In this document: one piece after another, positions 3,843 to 24,039 of the stretch
How the letters are laid out: every line of letters begins with the position of its first letter
Position numbering within the stretch: the stretch's first letter is position 1
Source of the DNA: an uncultured Gammaproteobacteria bacterium
GTDB taxonomy: Bacteria > Pseudomonadota > Gammaproteobacteria > Steroidobacterales > Steroidobacteraceae
NCBI GenBank assembly: GCA_963823415.1
Contig: CAWGLJ010000009.1
Span: 247,748-311,747, forward strand
Reading direction: 5' to 3'
Length of the DNA: 64,000 bases
Notes under the pieces: model-generated
The model's database searches: none
Told to the model about the DNA's origin: nothing
What the model saw: the letters and a program-made list of their open reading frames with translations, nothing else
Translations under genes and position numbers: made by a program

Positions 3843-4708
3843 AGGTCACCGTCGCCGCGACGCAGATGGCCTGCAGCTGGGACCGCGAGGCGAACGTCGC
3901 GAACGCCGAGCGGCTGATCCGCGAGGCGGCGAAGCAGGGCGCGAACGTGATCCTGATCCAGGAGCTGTTCGAGGCGCCGTACTTCTGCAAGGACCACCTC
4001 GCGAAGCACTTCGAGCTGGCCGTGCCGATCGCCGAGAACACCGCGATCCAGCGGCTGGCGAAGGTCGCGAAGGAACTGAAGGTGGTGCTGCCGCTGTCCG
4101 TGTTCGAGCGCGCGCAGAACGCCTACTTCAACACGCTGGTGATGGTGGACGCCGACGGGTCGACGCTCGGCATCTACCGCAAGTCGCACATCCCGGAGAG
4201 CCCGGGCTACCACGAGAAGTTCTACTTCTCGCCGGGCGACACGGGATTCAAGGTGTGGCCGACCCGGTATGGCACGCTGGGCGTCGCAGTGTGCTGGGAC
4301 CAGTGGTTCCCGGAGTCCGCGCGCGCGATGGCGCTCATGGGCGCCGAGATCCTGCTGTACCCGACCGCGATCGGCTCGGAGCCGCAGGATCCCTCGCTCG
4401 ACTCGCGCCGTCACTGGCAGCGGACGATGCAGGGCCACGCCGCGGCCAACATCATGCCGCTCGTCGCCTCGAACCGGATCGGTACCGAGCAGGGCGAAAA
4501 GCTCTCGATCACCTTCTACGGCACCTCGTTCATCGCCGACCACACCGGCGCGGTCCTCGCCGAGGCCGACGACCACAGCGAACAGGTGCTGACCGCAAGC
4601 TTCGACCTCGAGGAGATCCGCCGTTACCGTCATTCCTGGGGTGTCTATCGCGACCGGCGCCCGGACCTCTACGGGCCATTGCTGAAGCTGGACGGTGGCC
4701 GGGGCTGA
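3839..4708 (+). CDS. aguB: N-carbamoylputrescine amidase (CN-hydrolase/nitrilase superfamily)
   Basis: Intact 289-aa ORF with full-length family look (VILIQELFEAPYFC, GIYRKSHIPESPGYHEKFYFSPGD, GVAVCWDQWFPE, LLYPTAIGSEP). ATGA start/stop overlap with the aldehyde dehydrogenase. Confidence 0.85.
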   Translation: MKVTVAATQMACSWDREANVANAERLIREAAKQGANVILIQELFEAPYFCKDHLAKHFELAVPIAENTAIQRLAKVAKELKVVLPLSVFERAQNAYFNTLVMVDADGSTLGIYRKSHIPESPGYHEKFYFSPGDTGFKVWPTRYGTLGVAVCWDQWFPESARAMALMGAEILLYPTAIGSEPQDPSLDSRRHWQRTMQGHAAANIMPLVASNRIGTEQGEKLSITFYGTSFIADHTGAVLAEADDHSEQVLTASFDLEEIRRYRHSWGVYRDRRPDLYGPLLKLDGGRG

Positions 4709-6058
4709 GGACGCGCTCGCAGGCCGGATCGCCTGCGTGGACCTCGAGACCACGGGCGGGCATGCGGGGCGCGACCGGGTCATGGAGGCGGGCATCGTCC
4801 TGCTCGAGGACGGCGCGATCGTCGAGGAATGGTCGACGCTCGTGAACCCGGAAGTGCGAATCCCCTATGCGATCCAGCAGTTCACCGGCATCACCGAGGC
4901 GATGGTCGCGGACGCGCCGCCGTTCGCCAGGGTCGCGGACGAGATCGCCTCGCGGATCGAGGGCCGGCTGTTCGTCGCGCACAACGCGCGCTTCGACTAC
5001 GGGTTCCTGCGCGGGGAGTTCCGGCGCCTCGGCCGGCGTTTCCGCGCGCCGGTGCTGTGCACCGTGCGGCTCTCGCGCGCGCTGACACCCGACGAGCGCG
5101 GCCACAACCTCGACGCGGTCATGACACGCCACGGCATCAGCTGCGAAGCGCGCCACCGCGCGCTCGGCGACGCGCGCGTGCTGGCGGAATTCCTCGGCAT
5201 CGCGCGGGCGCGCTGGCCGGCCGGCGACGCTCGGCCCGGTGGTCGAGCGGCTGACCTCCGTCCCGCGGCTGCCGCCGCAGCTCGACCCCGGGCTCGCGGA
5301 CGAGCTGCCGGAAGGGCCGGGCGTCTACCTCTTCCACGGCGAGGACGACGCGCTGCTCTACGTCGGCAAGGCGAAGAACCTCGCGACCCGCGTGCTCGCG
5401 CATTTCGCCGAACCGCACTCGAAGCTCGACGGCGAGATCGCGCGGCGCGTCCGGCGCATCGAGTGGATCGAGACGGCCGGCGAGTTCGGCGCGCTCCTGA
5501 CCGAGGCGCGGCTCATCAAGGTCGCGAAGGCCCGCTGTTCAACCGTCGGCCCCGCGGCTCCGACGCGCTCTGGGGGATTCACCTGCGCGAGGACGGGGCG
5601 ATGCCGCTCGCCGGCGATCCGCGAGCTGGACGCGCTCGACGATCCCGGCGCCAGCTACGGGATCTTCCGGCGCGCCGTGGACGCCGAGCGCGCACTCGAA
5701 GGGCTCGCCGCGCACCCACGAGCTGTGCGCGAAATGGCTGGGACTCGAGCCCGGGGAGGGCTCCTGCCTCGGCTTCCAGCTCGGGCGCTGCCGCGGCGTC
5801 TGCATCGGCAAGGAGCCGCCCGCGCTCCACGCCGTGCGCGTGAAGCTCGCGCTCGCGGGTCTCAAGCGCCGCGACTGGCCGTTTCCCGGCCCGATCGGCA
5901 TCCGCGAGCGCGACTGGCGGGGCCATGAGGAAACGCACGTCTTCGATCGCTGGTGCCACGCCGACGAGCCGTTCGACCTCGACGTCTACCGCATCCTGAC
6001 CGGATTCCTCGACCGGCCGCTGCGCGGCGCGCAGATCGTGCGCCCGGGCGACGACTGA
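4695..6058 (+). pseudogene. DnaQ-type 3'-5' exonuclease fused to a GIY-YIG (UvrC/Cho-like) nuclease domain; several frame changes
   Basis: Exonuclease motifs CVDLETTG, LFVAHNARFDYGFL and HRALGDARV lie in ORF 4695. The GIY-YIG motif PGVYLFHGEDDALLYVGKAKNLATRV...IEWIETAGEFGALLTEARLIK lies in ORF 5239. The C-terminus RRDWPFPGPIGIRE... lies in ORF 5834-6058. At least four frame switches. Confidence 0.75.
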
Positions 6059-13471: not shown

Positions 13472-14304
13472 TGCAGGCGCTCCCGGTGGGCATAGACATT
13501 GAAGGAGCGACCGCGCAGGAAGCCGACCAGCATGATGCCGGTGCGCTGCGCGAGGTCGATGGCGAGCGAGGAGGGCGCGCCGACCGCGGCGACCACGGGG
13601 ATGCCCGCGGCGGCGGCCTTCTGCAGCAGCTCGAAGCTCGCGCGTCCCGACAGGAACAGGACGCTGTCCGAGAGCGGCAGCTCGCCCGCGAGCAGGCGCG
13701 CGCCGACGAGCTTGTCGAGCGCATTGTGGCGGCCGACGTCCTCGCGCACGTCGAGCAGCCGGCCCTCGGCGTCGAACAGGCAGGACGCATGGAGTCCGCC
13801 GGTCTCGCGGAACACGTCCTGGCCCGCACGCGCGCGGTCCGACAGGGATTCGATCAGCGCGGTCGAGACCTGGAGTTTTCCGTCCACGCTCGGCGAGCGC
13901 AGCATGCGCTCGACGGCGGCGAGCGAGGCGTTGCCGCAGACGCCGCAGCTCGAAGTCATGTAGAAGTGGCGCTGCAGCTTTGCGGCATCGAAGTCGACGC
14001 CCCCGGCGAGCTGGATCCGCACGATGTTGCCGTCCAGGCCGCTGATGCGGCTGCCGGCGACGTCCTCACGGGACCGGACGATGCCCTCGCCGTGCAGGAA
14101 GCCGACCGCGAGCTCGACATCGTGCCCGGGCGTGCGCATCGTGACCGACAGTGAAGTTCCCGGTCCTTCGTCGCCGGCACCGGCGACGCGGATCTCGAGC
14201 GGCTCCTCGACGACCACCAGGTCCTGGCGCGCGATCAGGTGCTCGTCCCGCATCGCATCGATCGGAACCTGCCGCACCGAATCGAGGTGGTGCTGTGCGC
14301 TCAT
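13468..14304 (-). CDS. fdhD: formate dehydrogenase accessory sulfurtransferase FdhD
   Basis: 278 codons from ATG 14304 ([12 protein letters not shown]...). Conserved SSCGVCG and GRHNALDK motifs. The longer ORF-track start at 14706 is an Arg/Pro-rich over-extension into the upstream gene. Confidence 0.85.
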
Positions 14305-15818
14305 CGCGGCCGGCGACCCGAGCGGCGACGTTGCAGCGGGGCTTCCGCCAGGGCGTGGTCGGGCGGCGGCGGCAGGACCGGCAGTTCCTTCTGGTCCTTC
14401 AGGCCCGACATCACGATGCGGCGCATCTCGGCATCCACGGCAGCGTCGGTCGGGATCTCCACCCAGGCCGCGAGGCGCTTCTCGACCTGTTCGACGGCGC
14501 GGGACTGCAGGTCGCGCGATCCCTGCTTGATCCAGGTTTCGCGATTCTCGCGGTCGATGACCGGGTCGGTCAGGTACAGCTCCTGCGGCCAGTACTTGAG
14601 CGTGTGCGGCGAGGTGATGAGGTGATCGTTGGCGCGCACTTCCGCGACGAGATTGCCGCAGGGCACGTCCTCCAGCACCTTCGTCTCGCGCACGAAGTTG
14701 AGGCACTGGCCGCAGACCTCGTTGTCGAACAGCAGCTTCGCCAGGCTGAAGGTCAGCACGAAGTCGAGCATGCCGGGGCCGGAAACGGAGTTGACGCCCG
14801 CGAGCGCGGCCAGCAGCGCGCTCGACATCGTCTCGGCGCCCGCCTGGGCATCGAGGAACTTGCCGTCCGAGAGCGCCATGTAGGCCTGGGTCGGCAGGCC
14901 GAGCGACTTCGCGATGGCGACATAGCCGACGTTCAGCCGCTGCGCCTCGATCGCCGCCATCGGCGCGCTCGCGGCGCGCATGTGGAAGGTCGCGGGCGCG
15001 CCGCCGAACAGCACCGGCGCGCCGGGCTTGATCACCTGCGCCATCGTGATGCCGGTCAGCACGTCCACGCAGTGGAAGACCAGGGCGCCCATCAGCGTGA
15101 CCGGCGCGATGAGGCCCATCAGCGTGACCGGCACGATCTCGACCGGGATGCCGGCCTCGACGCAGTCGAGCAGGTTCTGGCAGGAGTCCTCGCCGAAGCG
15201 GAAGTTGCCGGTCGCCGTGATCGTGAAGATCGACATCGGCTTCGCGATGAGCTCCGCGCGGTCGCGGCGGAAGAGCTGCATCATCTCCGCCATGCGCGGC
15301 ACGCCGTGCTCGCCGAAGGCGCCGGAGACGACCGGCTTCTTCGTGTTCGTGAGCACCATGTAGAGCCGCCAGACGTCGGAGACCTGCGGCTCGATGTCGG
15401 CGTTCGTCGAGAACGCCGTGGCGAGGTAGGGAATGTGCGGCAGGCCGTCGCAGAGGCGCGCGTACTCGACGAAGTCCGTCGAGTCCGCAAGGCGCGTCTC
15501 GCCCGTGCGGTGGTCCATGATCTTGAGGCCGCTGGAGCCCGGGATGAAGTGCACGTTCCAGCCGCCGATTTCCGCGTGCGGCTCACCGTCGCGGTTGTAG
15601 AGCGTGAAGGACTTCGGCGCGGTCGCGATCGCGCGGTCCACGACCGCGGTGGGGAAGAGCACGCGGCCGGTCGCATCGGTCGGCAGGCCCGCGTCGATCA
15701 GGCGCTGGCGCATCTTCGCGCCGCGGATCTCCATGCCGGTCTCGGCCATGATCCGCTTCGCCTCGGCGAGCACCGCGGCGATCTGGTCAGGCTCGAGAAT
15801 CTGGATCGTCGGTCTCAT
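14301..15818 (-). CDS. MttB-superfamily (trimethylamine methyltransferase-like, no in-frame amber codon) methyltransferase, probably acting on a quaternary amine
   Basis: Intact 505-aa ORF with full-length MttB-family look ([60 protein letters not shown]). The stop TGA overlaps the fdhD ATG (ATGA at 14301-14304). Confidence 0.8.
15087..15140. repeat. in-frame 27-bp tandem duplication inside the mttB-like gene
   Basis: gcccatcagcgtgaccggcgcgatgag / gcccatcagcgtgaccggcacgatctc: 23 of 27 positions are identical and the first 19 are contiguous. It encodes [18 protein letters not shown]. Confidence 0.8.
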
Positions 15819-15854
15819 TTCACGACTTCCCCCGTTGCGCTGCGGCCGGGCTTA

Positions 15855-17063: not shown

Positions 17064-17680
17064 GCGGCGCGGCCCGCAAGCCCCGCTACGAGCGCCAGGT
17101 CGCGAGCGACCGGCGCGAGGCGCTGGTGGACGCGGCGATCGAGAGCCTGAAGCGCTACGGCTACGAGGGCCTGTCGGTGCGGCGCATCGCGGCCGAGGCC
17201 GGCGTCTCCATCGGCCTGATCAACCACCACTTCCCGAACAAGGACACGCTGGTCGCCGAGAGCTACCGGACGTTCGGGCGCCGGCTCGCCGCGAACTTCG
17301 AGGCGGCGGTTGCGGCCGCGGGCCCGGACCCGCGCGCGCGGCTGCGCGCCTACCTCGACGCGTTCTTCTCGGGCCCGAACCTCAACCCGCAGGTGCTGAC
17401 GGCCTGGGTCGTGTACTGGAGCCTGGTGCAGGTGTCGCCGGAGATGAGGCGGTGCGCGACGAGGAGGGCAAGGGCTACAGCGAGGTGCTCGGGCAGCTGC
17501 TGTCCGACCTCGCGCAAGCGCGCGGCGGCACTGTCCGTGGACCTCGGCCTCGCCGTCACCGGCCTCACCGCGCTGCTCGACGGCCTGTGGCTGCAGCTCT
17601 GCCTCGATCCCACGAGCATCCGCCCGAAGGACGCCGCCGCGCTCTGCGACGACTGGGTCGACCGCGTGGTCGGCGCCTAG
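17060..17680 (+). CDS. TetR-family regulator, BetI-like; the ORF is open but an internal segment (~17445-17525) reads better in another frame
   Basis: HTH: [29 protein letters not shown]-terminus: [16 protein letters not shown], as in BetI. The middle in-frame text [24 protein letters not shown] is implausible, while the alternative frame gives [28 protein letters not shown] overlap with the Rieske stop. Confidence 0.7.
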
Positions 17681-19369
17681 AACAGCCCGGTAATCTTCCC
17701 GTCGTCGGTCACGTCGATGTTGTTCGCCGCCGGCGTCACCGGCAGGCCCGGCATCGTCATGATGTCGCCGCAGATCATCACGATGAACTCCGCGCCGGCC
17801 GCGAGGCGCACCTCGCGGATGTTCACGACGTGCCCGTGCGGCGCGCCGCGCAGCTTCGGGTCGGTCGAGAAGGAGTACTGGGTCTTCGCCACGCAGACCG
17901 GGTAGTGGCCGTAGCCCGATTCCTGGAGCTGCTTGATCTGCCCGCGCACCTTGCTGTCGGCCGTGATCTCGGCGGCGCCGTAGATCTTGGTCGCGACCGC
18001 CTTCATCTTGTCCCAGAGCGTGTCCTTGTCGTCGTAGACGAACTTGAAGTAGTTCGCGTGGCTGCACAGCTCGACGACTTCCTTCGCGACGTCGACGGCG
18101 CCCTTGCCGCCCTCGGCGTAGTGCTTCGCGACGATGACCTTCACGCCGTGGTGCGTCGCGCGCTCCTGCAGCCAGTTGAGCTCGGCCTCGCTGTCCTCGG
18201 CGCGGTGGTTGATCGCGACCAGGCAGGGCAGGCCGAAGACGTCGCGCACGTTGTCGATGTGGCGGTCGAGGTTCGCGATGCCGGCCTGCAGCGCCTTCAG
18301 GTTCTCCTTGCCGAGGTCCGCGACTTCGACGCCGCCGTGGTACTTGATCGCGCGCACCGTCGCGACGATCACCGCGGCGGCGGGCTTCAGGCCCGCCTTG
18401 CGGCACTTGATGTCCACGAACTTCTCGGCGCCGAGGTCGGCGCCGAAGCCGCCCTCCGTGACCACGTAGTCGGCGAGCTTGAGCGCCGTCTTGGTCGCCA
18501 TCACCGAGTTGCAGCCGTGCGCGATGTTCGCGAACGGGCCGCCGTGGATGAAGGCCGGGTTGTTCTCGAGCGTCTGGACCAGGTTCGGGGCGAGCGCGTC
18601 CTTCAGCAGCGCCGCCATCGCGCCCGCGGCCTTGATGTCGCGCGCGTGGATCGGCTTCTGGTCGCGCGTGTAGCCGACCACGATCTTGCCGAGGCGCTCC
18701 TTGAGGTCCTTGAGGCTGGTCGACGAGGCAGAAGATCGCCATGACTTCGGAGGCGACGACGATGTCGAAGCCGTCCTGGCGCGGGAAGCCGTTGCCCGGG
18801 CCGCCGAGGCCGACCGTGATGTCGCGCAGCGCGCGGTCGTTGCAGTCCACGACCCGCCGCCAGGTGATGCGGCGCACGTCGAAGCCGCAGGCGTTGCCGT
18901 GGTGGATGTGGTTGTCGATCATCGCCGCGAGCAGGTTGTTCGCGAGCGCGATCGCCGAGAAGTCGCCGGTGAAGTGGAGGTTGATGTCCTCCATCGGCAC
19001 GACCTGGGCGTAGCCGCCGCCCGCCGCGCCGCCCTTCATGCCGAACACCGGGCCGAGCGCCGGCTCGCGCAGGCAGATGATCGCCTTCTTGCCGATGCGG
19101 TTCAGCGCGTCGCCGAGGCCGACCGTCATCGTCGTCTTGCCTTCGCCCGCCGGGGTGGGGGAGATGGCGGTGACGAGGATCAGCTTGCCGTCCTGCTTGC
19201 CCTCGAGGTGGGTGCAGTAGTCGAGCGAGATCTTGGCCTTGTAGTGGCCGAAGGGGGAGAGGTGCTCCTCAGGGATGCCGAGCCGCTCCTTCGCGAGCGG
19301 AACGATCGGCTTCATCTTGGCGTGCTGGGCGATCTCGATATTGCTGAGGCTTCCCTTCGACGGCGGCAT
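17677..19369 (-). pseudogene. fhs: formate--tetrahydrofolate ligase; one frame change
   Basis: The N-terminus lies in ORF 16919-19369 ([14 protein letters not shown].., [28 protein letters not shown]). The remainder lies in ORF 17677-18681 ([16 protein letters not shown] ... PGLP). The switch is near 18690-18730. Confidence 0.9.
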
Positions 19370-19552
19370 GGTTTCTTGTCCCGGCTTGAAAAAAAGAGTG
19401 CGTAGGATGCCTGCAAGGCGTCCGTTTTGCCATTTGGACGGATGTCTGGCGGTAGTGGGGTCGAACTTCAGCCCCGATTAAGTCAGGTCCGATTCGACTG
19501 AGCCGGAACAACGACTTGACAGGCGGGCGGATGATATTCGGCTGGGAATGAC

Positions 19553-19593
19553 GTAAAACATTGCGTCAGGTTCAGACCCAACAGACGTTAGAC
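19553..19593 (+). repeat. degenerate attC remnant ending in a canonical core site GTTAGAC (19587-19593)
   Basis: GTAAAAC-ATTGCGTCAGG...CCCAAC-AGAC-GTTAGAC resembles the ends of attC1/attC2 but is too short and pairs poorly. GTTAGAC is the exact complement of R'' of attC1. Confidence 0.35.
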
Positions 19594-19608
19594 CACATCG
19601 GAGGTTTG

Positions 19609-19863
19609 GTGCTAGAACTTCGGCCGGGTTGCGAGTGCTGTGATGTCGACCTGCCGCCAGATGCGACAGATGCCTACATTTGTAGCTTCGAGTGCACTTT
19701 CTGCCGTTCATGTGCGGAAACCAGACTTCACGGCAAGTGTCCGAATTGCGGAGGCAAACTGATGCAGCGTCCTCCTCGACCTATCGAATTGCTTCAGCGG
19801 CATCCGGCATCGACCCGTCGCACTTTCAAGCCGTCCGGTTGTCCGCCGCGCGATGCGGTCTAA
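19609..19863 (+). CDS. DUF1272-type small Cys-rich (zinc-ribbon-like) protein, cassette-borne
   Basis: GTG 19609 is preceded by GGAGG. Sequence: LELRPGCECCDVDLPPDATDAYICSFECTFCRSCAETRLHGKCPNCGGKL. The stop TAA lies inside the attC1 inverse core GTCTAAC. Confidence 0.7.
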   Translation: MLELRPGCECCDVDLPPDATDAYICSFECTFCRSCAETRLHGKCPNCGGKLMQRPPRPIELLQRHPASTRRTFKPSGCPPRDAV

Positions 19864-19983
19864 CTATGCGTTGGAGCGGTCCGTGAGAGCTTGCGGGTGG
19901 CGCGCCGCAGGCGCGCGAAGAGATTTTACGCCTGCGGCGCGCTGCAACGGCCGCACGTGCGCCGCTCAACGCGGACGTCAGAC
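19858..19983 (+). repeat. attC site 1 (126 bp)
   Basis: GTCTAAC-TATGC-GTTGGAGCGG...CCGCTCAAC-GCGGAC-GTCAGAC. It has an RYYYAAC inverse core and a GTTRRRY-like core, and its arms pair with one unpaired G. The central part carries a 12-bp perfect hairpin (19902-19913 / 19929-19940). Confidence 0.7.
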
Positions 19984-20004
19984 GTCATTCAGCTTGGAGG
20001 TTGC

Positions 20005-20437
20005 ATGAGGCGATTATTGATCTTACTGGTGGCGGCTCTGGGACTCGTCACCGCCGAGGCCGCGACACTCCAGGCCGATGCAGACGTCCGCGCGTTTGCT
20101 GATCGCGTCATGGCAAAGGTCGCGAAGGCCGATCTGCCAGGTGCGTTCGCCGAAATGAAGCCGTACACCATCATCCCGCCAACGGAGTTCGATGCGGCTG
20201 CACTTCAATCGAAGTCGCAGCGCGACCTGGTTGGCACGCGCTTTGGCGCCACGATTGGCTATGAATTCATCAGTGAGAAACGCAGCGGCCAGTCCTTGTT
20301 GAAGCTGACATATATCGAAATGACGGAGCGCCATGCCATACCGTGGATTTTCTACTTCTATAGATACGCCGGATGGCTGGGTACTGAATTCCTTCTTCTG
20401 GCACGATCGAATGACGGATCTGCTGACTGGTCAATGA
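20005..20437 (+). pseudogene. hypothetical secreted protein (signal peptide), cassette-borne; one frame change near 20371
   Basis: ATG 20005 follows GGAGG. Signal peptide MRRLLILLVAALGLVTAEA. After ..IPWIFYFYRYA the alternative frame reads DGWVLNSFFWHDRMTDLLTGQ* and stops at 20435-20437, 1 nt before attC2. The uncorrected ORF instead runs into attC2 and ends at 20481. Confidence 0.55.
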
Positions 20438-20438
20438 C

Positions 20439-20518
20439 ACCTGACCATGCGTTGGAGCAGTCCGTGAAGCCTTGCGGGTGACGTGCCCCGAGCAGCCTGC
20501 TCGACGCGGACGTTAGGA
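20439..20518 (+). repeat. attC site 2 (80 bp)
   Basis: ACCTGAC-CATGC-GTTGGAGCAG...CTGCTCGAC-GCGGAC-GTTAGGA. It has the same architecture as attC1 with a shorter variable centre. There is a compensatory arm change relative to attC1 (GAGCAG:CTGCTC versus GAGCGG:CCGCTC). Confidence 0.7.
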
Positions 20519-20526
20519 GGGATGAC

Positions 20527-20688
20527 GTGGCGAAGTGGCACCCTTGCTCCGATGTGGGTGCATTCATTCGCCATGGGGCAGGTTGCCGGGCATTACTTCA
20601 GGAAGGTCGAGTCGTTAATGACAACGCCTTGTACGTTTTCAAGGCACTCAGTCAGGAACTGGTGCGCGCAAGAATCAAAGTCAGGTGA
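20527..20688 (+). CDS. candidate 53-codon ORF at the start of the next cassette-like unit (unknown function)
   Basis: GTG 20527 lies 6 nt after a perfect AGGAGG (20515-20520). It encodes MAKWHPCSDVGAFIRHGAGCRALLQEGRVVNDNALYVFKALSQELVRARIKVR and ends 3 nt before the DUF302 ATG. It is below the ORF-track length cutoff and I recognise no homology. Confidence 0.25.
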   Translation: MAKWHPCSDVGAFIRHGAGCRALLQEGRVVNDNALYVFKALSQELVRARIKVR

Positions 20689-20691
20689 TCC

Positions 20692-21075
20692 ATGTACTAC
20701 CTCGTTGAGACCGGAAAATCATTCGACCAGGCGGCGGCAGATCTTGAAGCGGCAGTCAATCGCCTGGGCTTCGGAGTCCTGCATGTCCACGACCTGGGCA
20801 CCACGCTTCGGAGCAAGGGGATTGCATTTGAAGAGCAGTGCAAGGTTTTCGAGGTCTGCAATCCAAAGCAGGCTGCCAGGGTGTTGTCCACCGACATGCG
20901 CCTGAATATGGCCTTGCCGTGTCGCATATCGGTGTTCACGGAGAAGGGCAAGACGAAGATCGGCCTCATCAAGCCCGTGCAGATGCTTTCGGCCCTGTCG
21001 AAGGATGCGGCGTTGGTACAGGTTGCCAACGAGGTCGAGGCAAAGACCATTCAGATGGTCGACGAAGCGAAATGA
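20692..21075 (+). CDS. DUF302 domain protein
   Basis: Intact 127-aa ORF MYYLVETGKSFDQAAADLEAAVNRLGFGVLHVHDLG...FEVCNPKQAARVL..MALPCRISVF, the typical DUF302 sequence. Confidence 0.8.
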   Translation: MYYLVETGKSFDQAAADLEAAVNRLGFGVLHVHDLGTTLRSKGIAFEEQCKVFEVCNPKQAARVLSTDMRLNMALPCRISVFTEKGKTKIGLIKPVQMLSALSKDAALVQVANEVEAKTIQMVDEAK

Positions 21076-21105
21076 TGACGCAGCTTGCTGCGTAAGGACA
21101 GATCG

Positions 21106-21426
21106 ATGCTCACTTCGACAACGTTCGAGATAACCGGAGCGCGAACCGTGAAGTCATTGGGAGTGGTTCGCGGAATCACCGTCAGGACGCGGTCGCTTCC
21201 CATGACCATCGTCGGTGGAATTCGCACGATATTCGGCGGCAAGGCCGGCATCTTCACGACGCTGTGCGAAACAGCCAGGGAGGAGGCTTTCGAGCTCATG
21301 AAGGCGCACGCAAAGCAGCTGGGCGCCAATGCCGTGGTTGGGGTCCGGTATGACACCGGCCCAATGGTCGGCGCTGCAGAGGTCTTGTGCTACGGCACCG
21401 CTGTCCTCATCGAGCCAGCTTCGTGA
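21106..21426 (+). CDS. ybjQ: YbjQ/UPF0145 family (putative heavy-metal-binding) protein
   Basis: MLTSTTFEITGARTVKSLGVVRGITVRTRS...[40 protein letters not shown]...LCYGTAVLIE, with a full-length family look. Confidence 0.8.
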   Translation: MLTSTTFEITGARTVKSLGVVRGITVRTRSLPMTIVGGIRTIFGGKAGIFTTLCETAREEAFELMKAHAKQLGANAVVGVRYDTGPMVGAAEVLCYGTAVLIEPAS

Positions 21427-21851
21427 CGCTCGCGCAATCGCGCGACCAACTCATACGCCTGGCTGTGCTTCTGATGGTGTATCTGGTCGCCAGCCTCCTG
21501 CACTTCGCGCATAACGCGGAATTCCTCGGCGACTACCCCAATCTGCCGACCGGGCTGACTCGGTCGGATGTCTATTTCGTCTGGATGGGGCAAGCGGCCA
21601 TCGGGGTGGTCGGCTTTGCTCTCTATCTCCGCGGTCGGCAGACGCCTGGTCTCCTGCTCATCGGACTCTTCGCTGCCTTCGGTTTCGACGGACTCCTCCA
21701 TTACTCCCGGGCTCCCTTCGGCGCACACACGGTCGCAATGAATTTCACGATCTGGTTTGAGGTCGCCGCCGCTGGCGTGCTGCTGGTCGCCGTGGTATTT
21801 GCGCTCGTTAGACGCCGGTATGGCGCGCCGGTTTCCCCTGGCGTACCGTAG
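21423..21851 (+). CDS. hypothetical integral membrane protein (about four predicted helices)
   Basis: The GTG at 21423 overlaps the ybjQ stop (GTGA). Hydrophobic segments: [55 protein letters not shown]. Confidence 0.55.
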
Positions 21852-21895
21852 CGGCCGGCCGGACCCAGATCCGGGCGTCTCAACAGGGGGGTGGC

Positions 21896-22593
21896 ATGAA
21901 CAAGTATTTCGCCGAGTTCTTCGGCACGTTCTGGCTGGTGCTCGGCGGCTGCGGCAGCGCGGTGCTGGCGGCGGCGTTTCCCGAGGTCGGCATCGGCCTG
22001 CTCGGCGTCTCGCTCGCCTTCGGCCTCACGGTCCTGACGATGGCCTTCGCGATCGGCCACATCTCCGGTTGCCACCTCAACCCGGCGGTTTCCATCGGGC
22101 TCTGGGTCGGGCGGCCGCTTCCCGGCGAGCCAGCTCGTCCCGTACATCGTCGCCCAGGTGCTCGGCGGCATCGTCGCGGGCGGCGTGCTCTACCTGATCG
22201 CGAGCGGCAAGGCGGGCTTCGACGTCATCGGCCGGCTTCGCCTCGAACGGCTACGGCGAACACTCGCCGGGCGGGTACTCGCTGCAGGCCGCGCTCGTCA
22301 CCGAAGTCGTGATGACGATGATGTTCCTGGTCATCATCCTCGGCGCGACGGACAAGCGGGCGCCGCAGGGCTTCGCGCCGATCGCGATCGGCCTCGCGCT
22401 GACGCTGATCCACCTCATCAGCATCCCGGTGACCAACACCTCGGTGAACCCGGCGCGCAGCACGGGCGTCGCGGTGTTCGTCGGCGACTGGGCCGTCTCG
22501 CAGCTCTGGCTCTTCTGGGTGGCGCCGATCCTGGGCGGCATGCTCGGCGCGGTCGTCTACCGGATCATCGGCGGCAGCGGCGACCGAGCCTGA
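21896..22593 (+). pseudogene. aqpZ: aquaporin Z; at least two frame changes
   Basis: [23 protein letters not shown]...[17 protein letters not shown] lies in ORF 21896. [37 protein letters not shown] lies in the frame of ORF 22158. [15 protein letters not shown]...[13 protein letters not shown]...[12 protein letters not shown] lies in ORF 22309-22593. Both NPA boxes are present. Confidence 0.9.
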
Positions 22594-23133
22594 GTGACGC
22601 CCGACCAGGTACTCCGCTTCTGGTTCGAGGAAACGCCGCCGAAGGCCTGGTGGACGGTCGATGCGGCGTTCGACCGGACGCTGACGGCGCGCTTCGGCGA
22701 GCTGTTGTGCCGGGCGGCTGCCTGCGAGTTGAACAGCTGGCGGATCGATGCGCGCGGAAGGCTCGCGGAGATCGTCGTCCTCGACCAGTTCTCGCGCAAC
22801 ATCCACCGGGATACGGCGCGGGCGTTCGCGCAGGACGCCATGGCGCTGGTCCTGGCGCAGGAAGCGGTCGCGGCTGGCGCGCTGGCGCAGCTGCCGCCGA
22901 TCCAGCGCGCCTTCCTGCTGCTGCCGTACATGCACAGCGAGTCCCGCCTGATCCACGCGCAGGCGGAAGCGCTGTACCGCGAGCACGCGCCGCCCGAGAA
23001 CTTCGACTTCGAGCTGCGCCACAAGGCGATCATCGACCGCTTCGGGCGCTACCCGCACCGCAACGCGATTCTCGGACGCGCTTCGACGCCGGAGGAAATC
23101 GAATTCCTCCGGACGCCGGGCTCGAGTTTCTGA
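22594..23133 (+). CDS. DUF924 family protein
   Basis: Intact 179-aa ORF starting at GTG. Motifs: [48 protein letters not shown]. Confidence 0.8.
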
Positions 23134-23146
23134 ATCGCGTGTCGGG

Positions 23147-24039
23147 CTAAGCGGTCGCGACCGCCGTCGTCAGCACCATGCCGACGAGCACGGCGACGAT
23201 CCCGCCCCATTGCAGCCGGGTGGGCCGTTCCTTGAGCACTGCCCAGGCGAACGCGATCGTCACCACGGGGTAGGCGCCTGCGAGCGGCGTCACCAGCGAC
23301 GCGGGCCCGTGCTTGTAGGCGATCGCGACCAGCAGGCTCCCGAGCGCCATGGTCGCCATCGGCCCGGCCGAGCGCACAACACTCGGCGCGCGTCGCGCTG
23401 CGCGCGGCGCCTTGCAGCAACACCATACAGGCCGAGCGTCATCAGCCCGCCGATCGCGATGAAGAGCGCGAGGTTCGCCTCGTGCGCGGCCGGGAAGCTG
23501 TACGCGTAGCGGATCAGCGTGCCGCTCACGCCCCAGATGACGAGCGCGGCGCCGGCGTAGAGCTTCCAGCGTCCGCTCGTCGGCTTCGCTCGAGTCCGGC
23601 GGCGACCAGGCGAGCGCCAGGCAGCCGGCCAGCACGGCCGCGACGCCGAGGCCCTGCATCGCGGTCAGGTCTTCACCCAGGAAGTAGCGCGCGAAGATGA
23701 CGGTCAGGGCAGGGTAGGCCGCGGACAGCGTGCCGACGATGGAGATCGGGCCGTAGGTCAGCGACTGGTAGTAGAAGATCCACGCGATGCCGTCGAGCAC
23801 GTAGGCGAGCAGTCCCCAGAACGCGAACTCCCGGCCCTCGGCCGCGAACGGCGGCGGCGCATCGTGGAAGCGACCAGAACGCCACGTTCACGATCGCGTT
23901 GGCGATCGCGTAGTAGAGGCAGAAGCGCGCGGCGGAGACTTCGCCGATGTACTTCTTGACGAGGCCCTGCGCGAGTCCCCAGGCGAAGAGCGCCCCGAGC
24001 GTCGGCGCGAGCCAGGGAAGTTGCCCGACAGCTGCTCAT
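23147..24039 (-). pseudogene. EamA/DMT-family transporter; several frame changes
   Basis: Fragments: PWLAPTLGALFAWGLAQGLVKKYIGEVSAARFCLYYAIANAIVNVA (23890-24020), MLDGIAWIFYYQSLTYGPISIVGTLSAAYPALTVIFARYFLGEDLTAMQGLGVAAVLAGCLALAW, and the C-terminus LVTPLAGAYPVVTIAFAWAVLKERPTRLQWGGIVAVLVGMVL. Confidence 0.75.

Follow-up and report, generated by a model that had tools for sequence, protein, structure and literature searches.

Class 1 integron remnants in which intI1 is truncated or deleted retain attI and cassettes after the integrase is lost; they lie on transposons and plasmids of clinical bacteria and are recent, and the movement of class 1 cassettes by IntI supplied in trans is a standard laboratory assay. 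Among sedentary chromosomal integrons, the VCR repeats of the Vibrio cholerae superintegron form a lineage-specific attC family comparable to the one described below. Clusters of attC sites lacking an integron integrase (CALINs; Cury et al. 2016, PMC4889954) are widespread among bacterial genomes, and little is known of their origin and activity. The origins proposed for them include loss of intI and mobilization by an integrase encoded elsewhere, 95% of them have no recognizable intI pseudogene nearby, and IntegronFinder searches attI sites of classes 1 to 3 only (PMC4889954). In Xanthomonas, intI is often inactivated and CALINs are found at conserved chromosomal loci (10.1101/2025.06.18.660453), and cassettes can also insert at nonclassical attG sites (Loot et al., 10.1101/2022.09.11.507474). 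Here, we analyze a 64,000-nt stretch (the window) of an uncultured member of the Steroidobacteraceae (contig CAWGLJ010000009.1, assembly GCA_963823415.1), in which positions 19479-20518 are best read, with a probability of roughly 0.8, as an integron platform lacking only intI, composed of an attI site and two promoterless cassettes, each with an attC site of a lineage-specific family.

The locus resembles a CALIN in its two same-strand attC sites, 455 bp apart, in the lack of intI nearby and in its non-resistance cassettes. Since two clustered attC sites on one strand (here plus, at a spacing below 4 kb) without intI in their surroundings are what the CALIN definition describes, the locus falls under it (PMC4889954). 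It differs from the CALIN concept, of which attI is no part, by retaining an attI site with homology to the attI of complete integrons, and by standing beside the same core gene, fhs (formate-tetrahydrofolate ligase), in at least 11 genomes with different cassettes. With sedentary chromosomal integrons it shares a homogeneous attC family of ~126 nt, many small cassettes (an array of ~32 kb in one relative) and a fixed position by a housekeeping gene, comparable to the Xanthomonas integron at ilvD; here, however, intI is wholly absent rather than a pseudogene, only two cassettes are recognizable, and relatives bear several integrase-bearing integrons besides the orphan platform. As in attG insertion, the cassettes lie outside an integrase-bearing integron and the crossover is of the G/TT type (the slash marks the exchange point throughout), but the recipient is a full attI homolog found at the same site in all relatives and not an arbitrary GTT. 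Unlike the class 1 remnants, the locus is chromosomal, environmental and common to a clade in which fhs has diverged to 81% nucleotide identity. CALINs and their possible origin by loss of intI have already been described, and this locus is an unusually well-resolved case of them; its less ordinary aspect is that an orphan attI has been kept next to a single core gene throughout a clade and that the cassettes differ from genome to genome.

The two attC sites were assessed with a covariance model (R1) built from 68 nonredundant attC sites of other genomes (alignment A2), with the window sites excluded and the search filters off; R1 is a family-specific model and not the general attC model of IntegronFinder. 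With this model attC1 obtained 122 bits (E = 1.8e-33) and attC2 61 bits (E = 1.2e-15), while the next unrelated match in the 64 kb reached 14.7 bits and, the reverse strand of attC1 aside, nothing ranked higher. The ends recovered were exactly those given in the initial annotation of this DNA, which had been made from the letters and their open reading frames (ORFs). Read from the sequence, attC1 has the layout GTCTAAC-TATGC-GTTG[G]AGCGG ... CCGCTCAAC-GCGGAC-GTCAGAC and attC2 the layout ACCTGAC-CATGC-GTTG[G]AGCAG ... CTGCTCGAC-GCGGAC-GTTAGGA. In both, the R boxes measure 7 nt, the spacers 5 nt (YATGC) and 6 nt (GCGGAC), and L'' carries one extra base, the bracketed G, when GTTG[G]AGCRG pairs with CYGCTCRAC. 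The R''/R' pairs (GTCTAAC/GTCAGAC and ACCTGAC/GTTAGGA) each show one or two departures from RYYYAAC/GTTRRRY. Between the two sites, the arms GAGCGG:CCGCTC and GAGCAG:CTGCTC differ by a compensatory change, in which G-to-A in L'' is matched by C-to-T in L', and attC1 contains a perfect 12-bp hairpin at 19902-19913/19929-19940. On its bottom strand the expected hairpin was the minimum-energy structure under DNA parameters, in which the R boxes and the L boxes paired and a single base bulged out; when R-box pairing was enforced under the same parameters, the ensemble probabilities of the bottom strands were 0.67 for attC1 and 0.38 for attC2. The initial annotation's description of the repeats, namely core-type ends, inner arms pairing around one extra G, a compensatory arm change, the 12-bp hairpin, and conserved ends around a center of variable length (126 and 80 nt here, 60 to 128 nt in the family), was borne out by these alignments and folds. 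In the 64 kb, exactly two copies of the 21-nt left arm are present against an expectation of 0, and a right arm beside a left arm, allowing 0-1 mismatches, was found in the window only in its two copies.

Beyond the window, scanning the arm TGCGTTGGAGCNGTCCGTG across 185,579 species-representative genomes yielded at least 116 loci, most of those listed coming from metagenome-assembled genomes (MAGs) labelled Steroidobacteraceae or "uncultured Gammaproteobacteria". Among the matches listed, 131 of the 160 sites that could be delimited share one length of ~126 nt, and all copies lie on one strand in 54 of 55 multi-copy loci, at a median spacing of ~790 bp. The 68 aligned sites have a mean column identity of 79%, consensus R boxes RYCTAAC/GTTAGRY and a consensus fold with paired R boxes, paired L boxes and a central hairpin, in which two pairs exhibit compensatory changes (CG/GC in 37/13 sequences and AU/GC in 37/19); two to three bases of the spacers are also able to pair in this fold, a departure from unpaired spacers. 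At least 19 loci carry full-length IntI homologs of 50-60% identity directly beside the arrays and divergent from them, as detected by tblastn with an IntI1 query that served as a probe only. Three array-adjacent proteins matched the NCBIfam profile TIGR02249 "integron integrase" at 444-462 bits (cut-off 265). The search for further copies of the arm, with no third copy in the window and one-strand arrays starting at attI beside integron integrases elsewhere, agreed with the initial annotation. An independent covariance model and the occurrence of the family in arrays beside IntI therefore identify both window repeats, by model and by homology, as genuine attC sites of a lineage-specific family, the ~126-nt type of the Steroidobacteraceae. 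The same family, sometimes with intI, was also seen on short contigs binned as Nitrospira, Hyphomicrobiaceae, Burkholderiaceae, Dehalococcoidia and Gemmatimonadaceae (L002, L006, L007, L013, L025, L029, L055, L069, and others), which are either mis-binned repeat-rich contigs or a sign of cassette spread across phyla.

The cassettes are delimited as exchange between G and TT predicts. R'' of each attC is complementary to the start of its own cassette, GTTAGAC at 19587-19593 being the exact complement of attC1 R'', and the closest related locus (L117, see below) differs at the same kind of junction, so that the crossover boundaries first proposed hold. Cassette 1 encodes a DUF1272 protein (Pfam, 97 bits), as had been suggested, and its TAA stop (19861-19863) falls inside attC1 R''. 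A homolog of this gene (69% amino acid identity; 73% nucleotide identity from the R' core) is a cassette between two attC sites in another array (L100), which has a partial IntI match at its 5' end. The product of cassette 2, of 143 aa, has a signal-peptide-like N-terminus and no Pfam domain, consistent with the small secreted protein originally predicted, and 27 homologs were found, nearly all of 140-145 aa. As the sequence stands, its reading frame (ORF2) runs through to 20479-20481, within attC2. ORF2 contains a surplus base near 20365; once the frame is corrected, its C-terminus matches the protein P0001 and it stops at TGA 20435-20437, 1 nt before attC2 R''. The statement that both ORFs end inside or 1 nt before R'' was therefore right for DUF1272, and for ORF2 it was right only after the 1-nt frameshift correction. 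A homolog of ORF2 with 59% identity is the first cassette beside a divergent tyrosine-recombinase gene next to glmS (L118/L119); the recombinase was recognized by its Phage_int_SAM_4 and Phage_integrase domains. The presence of DUF1272 and ORF2 homologs in integrase-associated arrays elsewhere thus supports the mobility of these cassettes.

In L118 (4826-7001), L119 and L120, the recombinase gene lies immediately downstream of glmS and convergent with it; all three contigs carry the ORF2 homolog followed by the same 142-aa ORF, and L120 has an IS481-type transposase in place of the integrase side. This 142-aa ORF was considered as a link to the membrane ORF of the window and proved unrelated on comparison. 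Scanning six small proteins of the locus against NCBIfam gave only YbjQ-type matches, all below the curated cut-offs, and the PADLOC defense-system profiles gave no match to the same six.

The element that sets this locus apart lies upstream of cassette 1. A sequence profile (R2), built from only 12 integrase-adjacent attI regions (alignment A3), produced a single match in the 64 kb, at 19479-19592 (51.6 bits, E = 3.7e-15), ending at the G/TT crossover. The core of this site, 19547-19593, reads AATGACGTAAAAC...TTCAGACCCAACAGAC-G/TTAGAC, with the crossover between G19587 and T19588. The initial annotation had recognized no attI and had taken 19553-19593 for a degenerate attC remnant; both views were mistaken, given that the region is homologous to intI-adjacent attI regions and that the supposed remnant is the core of the attI site. 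An attI, assigned by homology, thereby stands at the head of the array. In the complete integrons of the lineage, the same element together with ~90 nt of further upstream homology lies between the start codon of intI and the first cassette, and this homology to intI-adjacent regions argues for an integron without only intI and not for insertion at a secondary site.

This attI is shared by a group of related genomes. At 10 or more related loci, fhs is found at 81-95% nucleotide identity with attC-bearing cassettes at the same position, the fhs-attI-cassette arrangement being present in at least 10 species representatives and one metagenomic contig (L117), with unrelated first cassettes and, in the species representatives, from 1 to at least 7 attC sites. 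The comparison of related genomes on the fhs side, proposed as a check in the initial annotation, hence returned a shared fhs-attI junction and differing cassettes. Upstream of fhs, these loci conserve an element, GAAATGACGTAAAAC-N7-GTCA...TTCA-ACCCAAT-N4-GTT, which ends exactly at the G/TT crossover, and the alignment of the fhs-upstream regions showed unrelated sequences beyond it. Across 11 fhs-adjacent copies, mean pairwise identity is 100% in the 12-mer AATGACGTAAAA and 73% in the last 20 nt before the crossover, against 32-51% upstream of the core and 25%, a random level, from position +4 past the crossover. In the window, fhs is transcribed away from the array and occupies the position that intI has in a complete integron, 110 nt from the attI homology. 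At one fhs-adjacent site (L019), the similarity to L097 (5675-5512, 86.6% identity) does not stop at attI but extends for another ~30 nt, reaching the beginning of the intI match there, which fits an origin by intI deletion. Searched for in metagenomes, the attI junction specific to the window had 0 matches.

Several further features of the attI regions were observed. Seen in the window (19547-19568), in L031 (1208-1342) and in 27 other loci, the 12-mer AATGACGTAAAA is present in all 28 attI regions that were collected with a pattern including the motif, and also in L050; it frequently belongs to an inverted repeat, TGACGT-N8-ACGTCA, and a conserved ACTTAC ... TGAT(T/A)A lies further upstream. 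The 12-mer and the upstream motifs may be IntI-binding boxes, a regulator site or a promoter. The attI sites fall into at least three subtypes, which orphan and intI-linked sites share. In L041, an intI-adjacent attI is broken right after GAAATGACG by an insert encoding a transposase-like protein (about 4100-4800), and the IntI reading frame of L097 (5659-6603) contains an in-frame stop.

The closest relative of the locus is L117, a metagenomic contig of 3.6 kb on which P0001 is encoded. Identity between it and the window is 97.5% in the 5' end of fhs and 93.8% over 19965-22065, and the two have in common the gene order fhs-attI-DUF1272-...-ORF2-attC2-ORF53-DUF302-YbjQ-membrane ORF, with the attC2 ortholog at 1955-2034 of L117. 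Exactly at the G/TY junction before cassette 2, L117 contains one more cassette, which encodes a GNAT acetyltransferase and has a 75-nt attC of its own. In the window, ...CGCTCAACGCGGACG/TCAGACGTCATTCAGC corresponds to the part of L117 left of ...GCGGACG/TTAGGC joined to the part right of ...GCCGGCG/TCAGGCGTCATTCAGC, where TTAGGC is the start of the GNAT cassette and TCAGGCGTCATTCAGC that of cassette 2. As aligned, the window and L117 differ here by exactly one cassette at the canonical crossover. Because of the extra GNAT cassette, the start of cassette 2 is preceded in L117 by a different attC, and the odd C in GTCAGAC is explained by TCAGRC belonging to cassette 2. The earlier view that the unusual C of attC1 R', mirrored in attC2 R'', is a property of cassette 2 was thereby upheld. 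Both of the divergent versions of the attI-proximal segment, in the window and in L117, begin with a DUF1272 cassette.

A number of observations weigh against the reading of 19479-20518 as an integron platform that lacks only intI. The R' boxes GTCAGAC and GTTAGGA are non-consensus with respect to GTTRRRY, and the bulged base of the bottom strand is C where G is usual. In the window, attI is degenerate in its upstream part, where the position of the GTTAGAT-like repeats of relatives reads AAGTCAGGT and aligns with a lower posterior probability. No integrase is visible for this genome within the 64 kb: tblastn with IntI1 (E <= 1e-3) and with two native IntI sequences (E <= 10), reaching 19 kb upstream and 43 kb downstream of the array, gave only noise with a best E of 1.6 for intI or a remnant of it, and the adjacent divergent intI of a complete integron is missing. 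This null result and the R1 matches support what had initially been described as a CALIN-like array with two well-formed attC sites and no integrase; with no integrase visible in the available 64 kb, and with exact look-ups of the DUF302 and DUF924 proteins giving no record in the assembly index, activity in trans is a supposition. Within 19300-20700, which includes the attI region, no sigma-70 consensus promoter was found (a TTGACA at 19516-19521 is not followed by a -10 hexamer at the proper distance), which leaves the expression of the cassettes unexplained. Finally, the fhs-upstream spacer, attI and cassette 1 of the window (19412-19977) are only 51-67% identical to their L117 counterparts (412-985), and it was probably homologous recombination with another lineage or integron, and not IntI alone, that replaced this attI-proximal segment.

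Some of this would also be expected if the platform were a dead fossil, in which intI was deleted long ago, the sites persist by inertia, and the differences among genomes predate the loss or arose by homologous recombination between repeats or lineages. Such an account fits the absence of intI from 64 kb, the degenerate upstream attI, the block after attC2 entirely without attC and the resemblance of the window-L117 difference in attI and cassette 1 to segment replacement by homologous recombination. We nevertheless regard it as unlikely, as it leaves an attI core conserved in 11 genomes far above its surroundings, and a first cassette that differs in every genome, a change that only attI x attC events or a swap of the entire attI-proximal segment could bring about. 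Inertia would also have to accommodate a GNAT cassette difference that is base-exact at G/TY and two attC sites that keep full arm complementarity, the compensatory change included.

Two other explanations question the identity of the sites themselves. Cassettes might have inserted into an ordinary GTT site upstream of fhs, an attG rather than an attI, and an array of few cassettes outside any integron is what such secondary-site insertion would leave; experimental attG insertions spread over many loci (10.1101/2025.06.18.660453), whereas here 11 genomes have the junction at one and the same position, and R2 finds homology to intI-adjacent attI over the ~114 nt that lead up to the crossover. 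This attI homology contradicts attG insertion, to which we assign a very low probability. Even less credible is that the repeats are terminators or palindromes of the repetitive extragenic palindromic (REP) or miniature inverted-repeat transposable element (MITE) kind that merely resemble attC. They are GC-rich imperfect palindromes located after ORFs, and the folding z-scores of attC2 are weak (-1.0 to -1.3), features that suit such elements; the presence of only two copies in 64 kb, the one-strand arrays starting at attI beside integron integrases elsewhere, and the cassette units bounded exactly at G/TT speak against a REP/MITE-like repeat, and no T-tract terminator overlaps either repeat, so that these identities were rejected. 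Rfam at the gathering threshold, run over the whole window, placed no family in the attC region. No tRNA was detected by a scan of the window, and the locus is therefore not a tRNA-targeted island.

If 19479-20518 is an integron platform devoid only of intI, each attC would act as a folded single strand, the bottom strand forming a hairpin in which the R and L boxes pair and a single base bulges out, and an IntI tyrosine recombinase would cut between G and TT of the R' box. Recombination of attI x attC would insert a circular cassette next to attI, that of attC x attC would excise a cassette, and the enzyme would be supplied in trans by a complete integron elsewhere in the genome. We infer that intI was lost by deletion, that this genome encodes an intI at another place and that the platform is active today. 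Since the same integrase-less site by fhs bears different cassettes in the relatives, it probably still exchanges genes by means of an integrase encoded elsewhere. Such a source is plausible because the genome of L093, whose fhs is 95% identical, has three IntI-matching loci (L031, L064 and L035), two of them full-length. We consider it about an even chance that the fhs-adjacent site is a "satellite" platform, that is, a selected attI without an integrase of its own, which has been kept through the diversification of the clade and whose cassettes are turned over by IntI in trans.

Among individual MAGs, MFD02242.bin.2.304 comprises L031, L035, L064 and L093, and so combines three IntI-matching loci with an orphan fhs-attI site, and in MFD04651.bin.2.41 the arm pattern extends through five consecutive 8-kb loci (L085-L020-L095-L074-L111) over ~32 kb, ending at intI. 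Several integrons per genome appear to be present in uncultured soil Steroidobacteraceae. Our literature search found nothing on integrons of the Steroidobacteraceae, one of the searches being swamped by unrelated results.

Table 1. Features of the integrase-less integron locus and its flanks (positions in the window).
Feature	Position	Strand	Description and basis
fhs (formate-tetrahydrofolate ligase)	17677-19369	-	Pfam FTHFS, E 6e-148; conserved left flank
attI-type site without adjacent intI	19479-19593	+	Match of profile R2
Cassette 1	19588-19977	+	TTAGAC ... G of attC1 R' box; DUF1272 gene from GTG 19609 to TAA 19863
attC1	19858-19983	+	126 nt, full-length family member; covariance model R1, bottom-strand fold
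Cassette 2	19978-20512	+	TCAGAC ... G of attC2 R' box; ATG 20005 to TGA 20437 after frame correction
attC2	20439-20518	+	80 nt, arms as in attC1, without central hairpin; covariance model R1
Low-GC block	20513-21851	+	~1.3 kb between attC2 and aqpZ; no recognizable attC
ORF53	20527-20688	+	
DUF302	20692-21075	+	Pfam
YbjQ	21085-21426	+	Pfam
Membrane ORF	21387-21851	+	

On the right side, the limits of the array are less sharp (Table 1). The initial annotation had placed the locus between fhs and aqpZ; fhs stands as the left flank, and aqpZ does not stand as the right boundary, given the low-GC block that intervenes, whose four tightly packed ORFs have a GC content of 55-63% compared with 69% for the window. 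After attC2, R1 with filters off found no attC above 15 bits, and a generic scan for R and L boxes over 19400-23300, on both strands and at full stringency, returned only the two known sites, the same scan recovering the strong sites of L093 and L096 as a positive control. A DUF302 homolog (83% amino acid identity) lies at the distal end of the ~32-kb array, in L085, behind a degenerate attC, and weaker YbjQ homologs occur in L089, just past the last attC of an fhs-linked array, and in L008. In L093 and L096, other small plus-strand ORFs are located between the last attC and a conserved EamA gene, and among 8 loci no conserved sequence that could represent an ancestral right flank was found after the last attC. 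The block is probably made of old cassettes with eroded attC sites, and its membership in the array is inferred; aqpZ and the DUF924 gene have the native GC content and are not assigned to the array.

Frameshifts are present on both sides of the locus. Compared with L093, L089 and L019, the fhs gene contains one additional nucleotide near 18721-18725, and aqpZ (21896-22593) is split over three frames. The single-base frameshifts in fhs, aqpZ and ORF2 look like indel errors of long-read assembly rather than pseudogenes, real inactivation being a further possibility. Further upstream, the only Rfam match in the window was PYLIS_3 at 14774-14870 on the minus strand (41.2 bits, gathering score 38), which lies inside an MttB-family methyltransferase gene (14304-15851, Pfam MTTB, 263 bits) and is probably a coding-sequence similarity and not a pyrrolysine signal. 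The neighbors of this gene are a Rieske oxygenase, a BetI-type TetR regulator and fhs, and the MttB-fhs neighborhood looks like a betaine or one-carbon catabolic cluster.

Together, these analyses define a new attC family, an attI consensus and the corresponding integrases for uncultured soil Steroidobacteraceae. They also describe a locus at which the origin of a CALIN can be read, through the retained attI, the homology of one fhs-adjacent site into intI, and the shared position next to fhs, with cassettes that vary, in at least 11 genomes. Because complete integrons with the same attI and attC types exist in the relatives, the question of CALIN activity becomes testable within one lineage. 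If the satellite interpretation is true, some CALINs would be working parts of a multi-site integron system and not debris.

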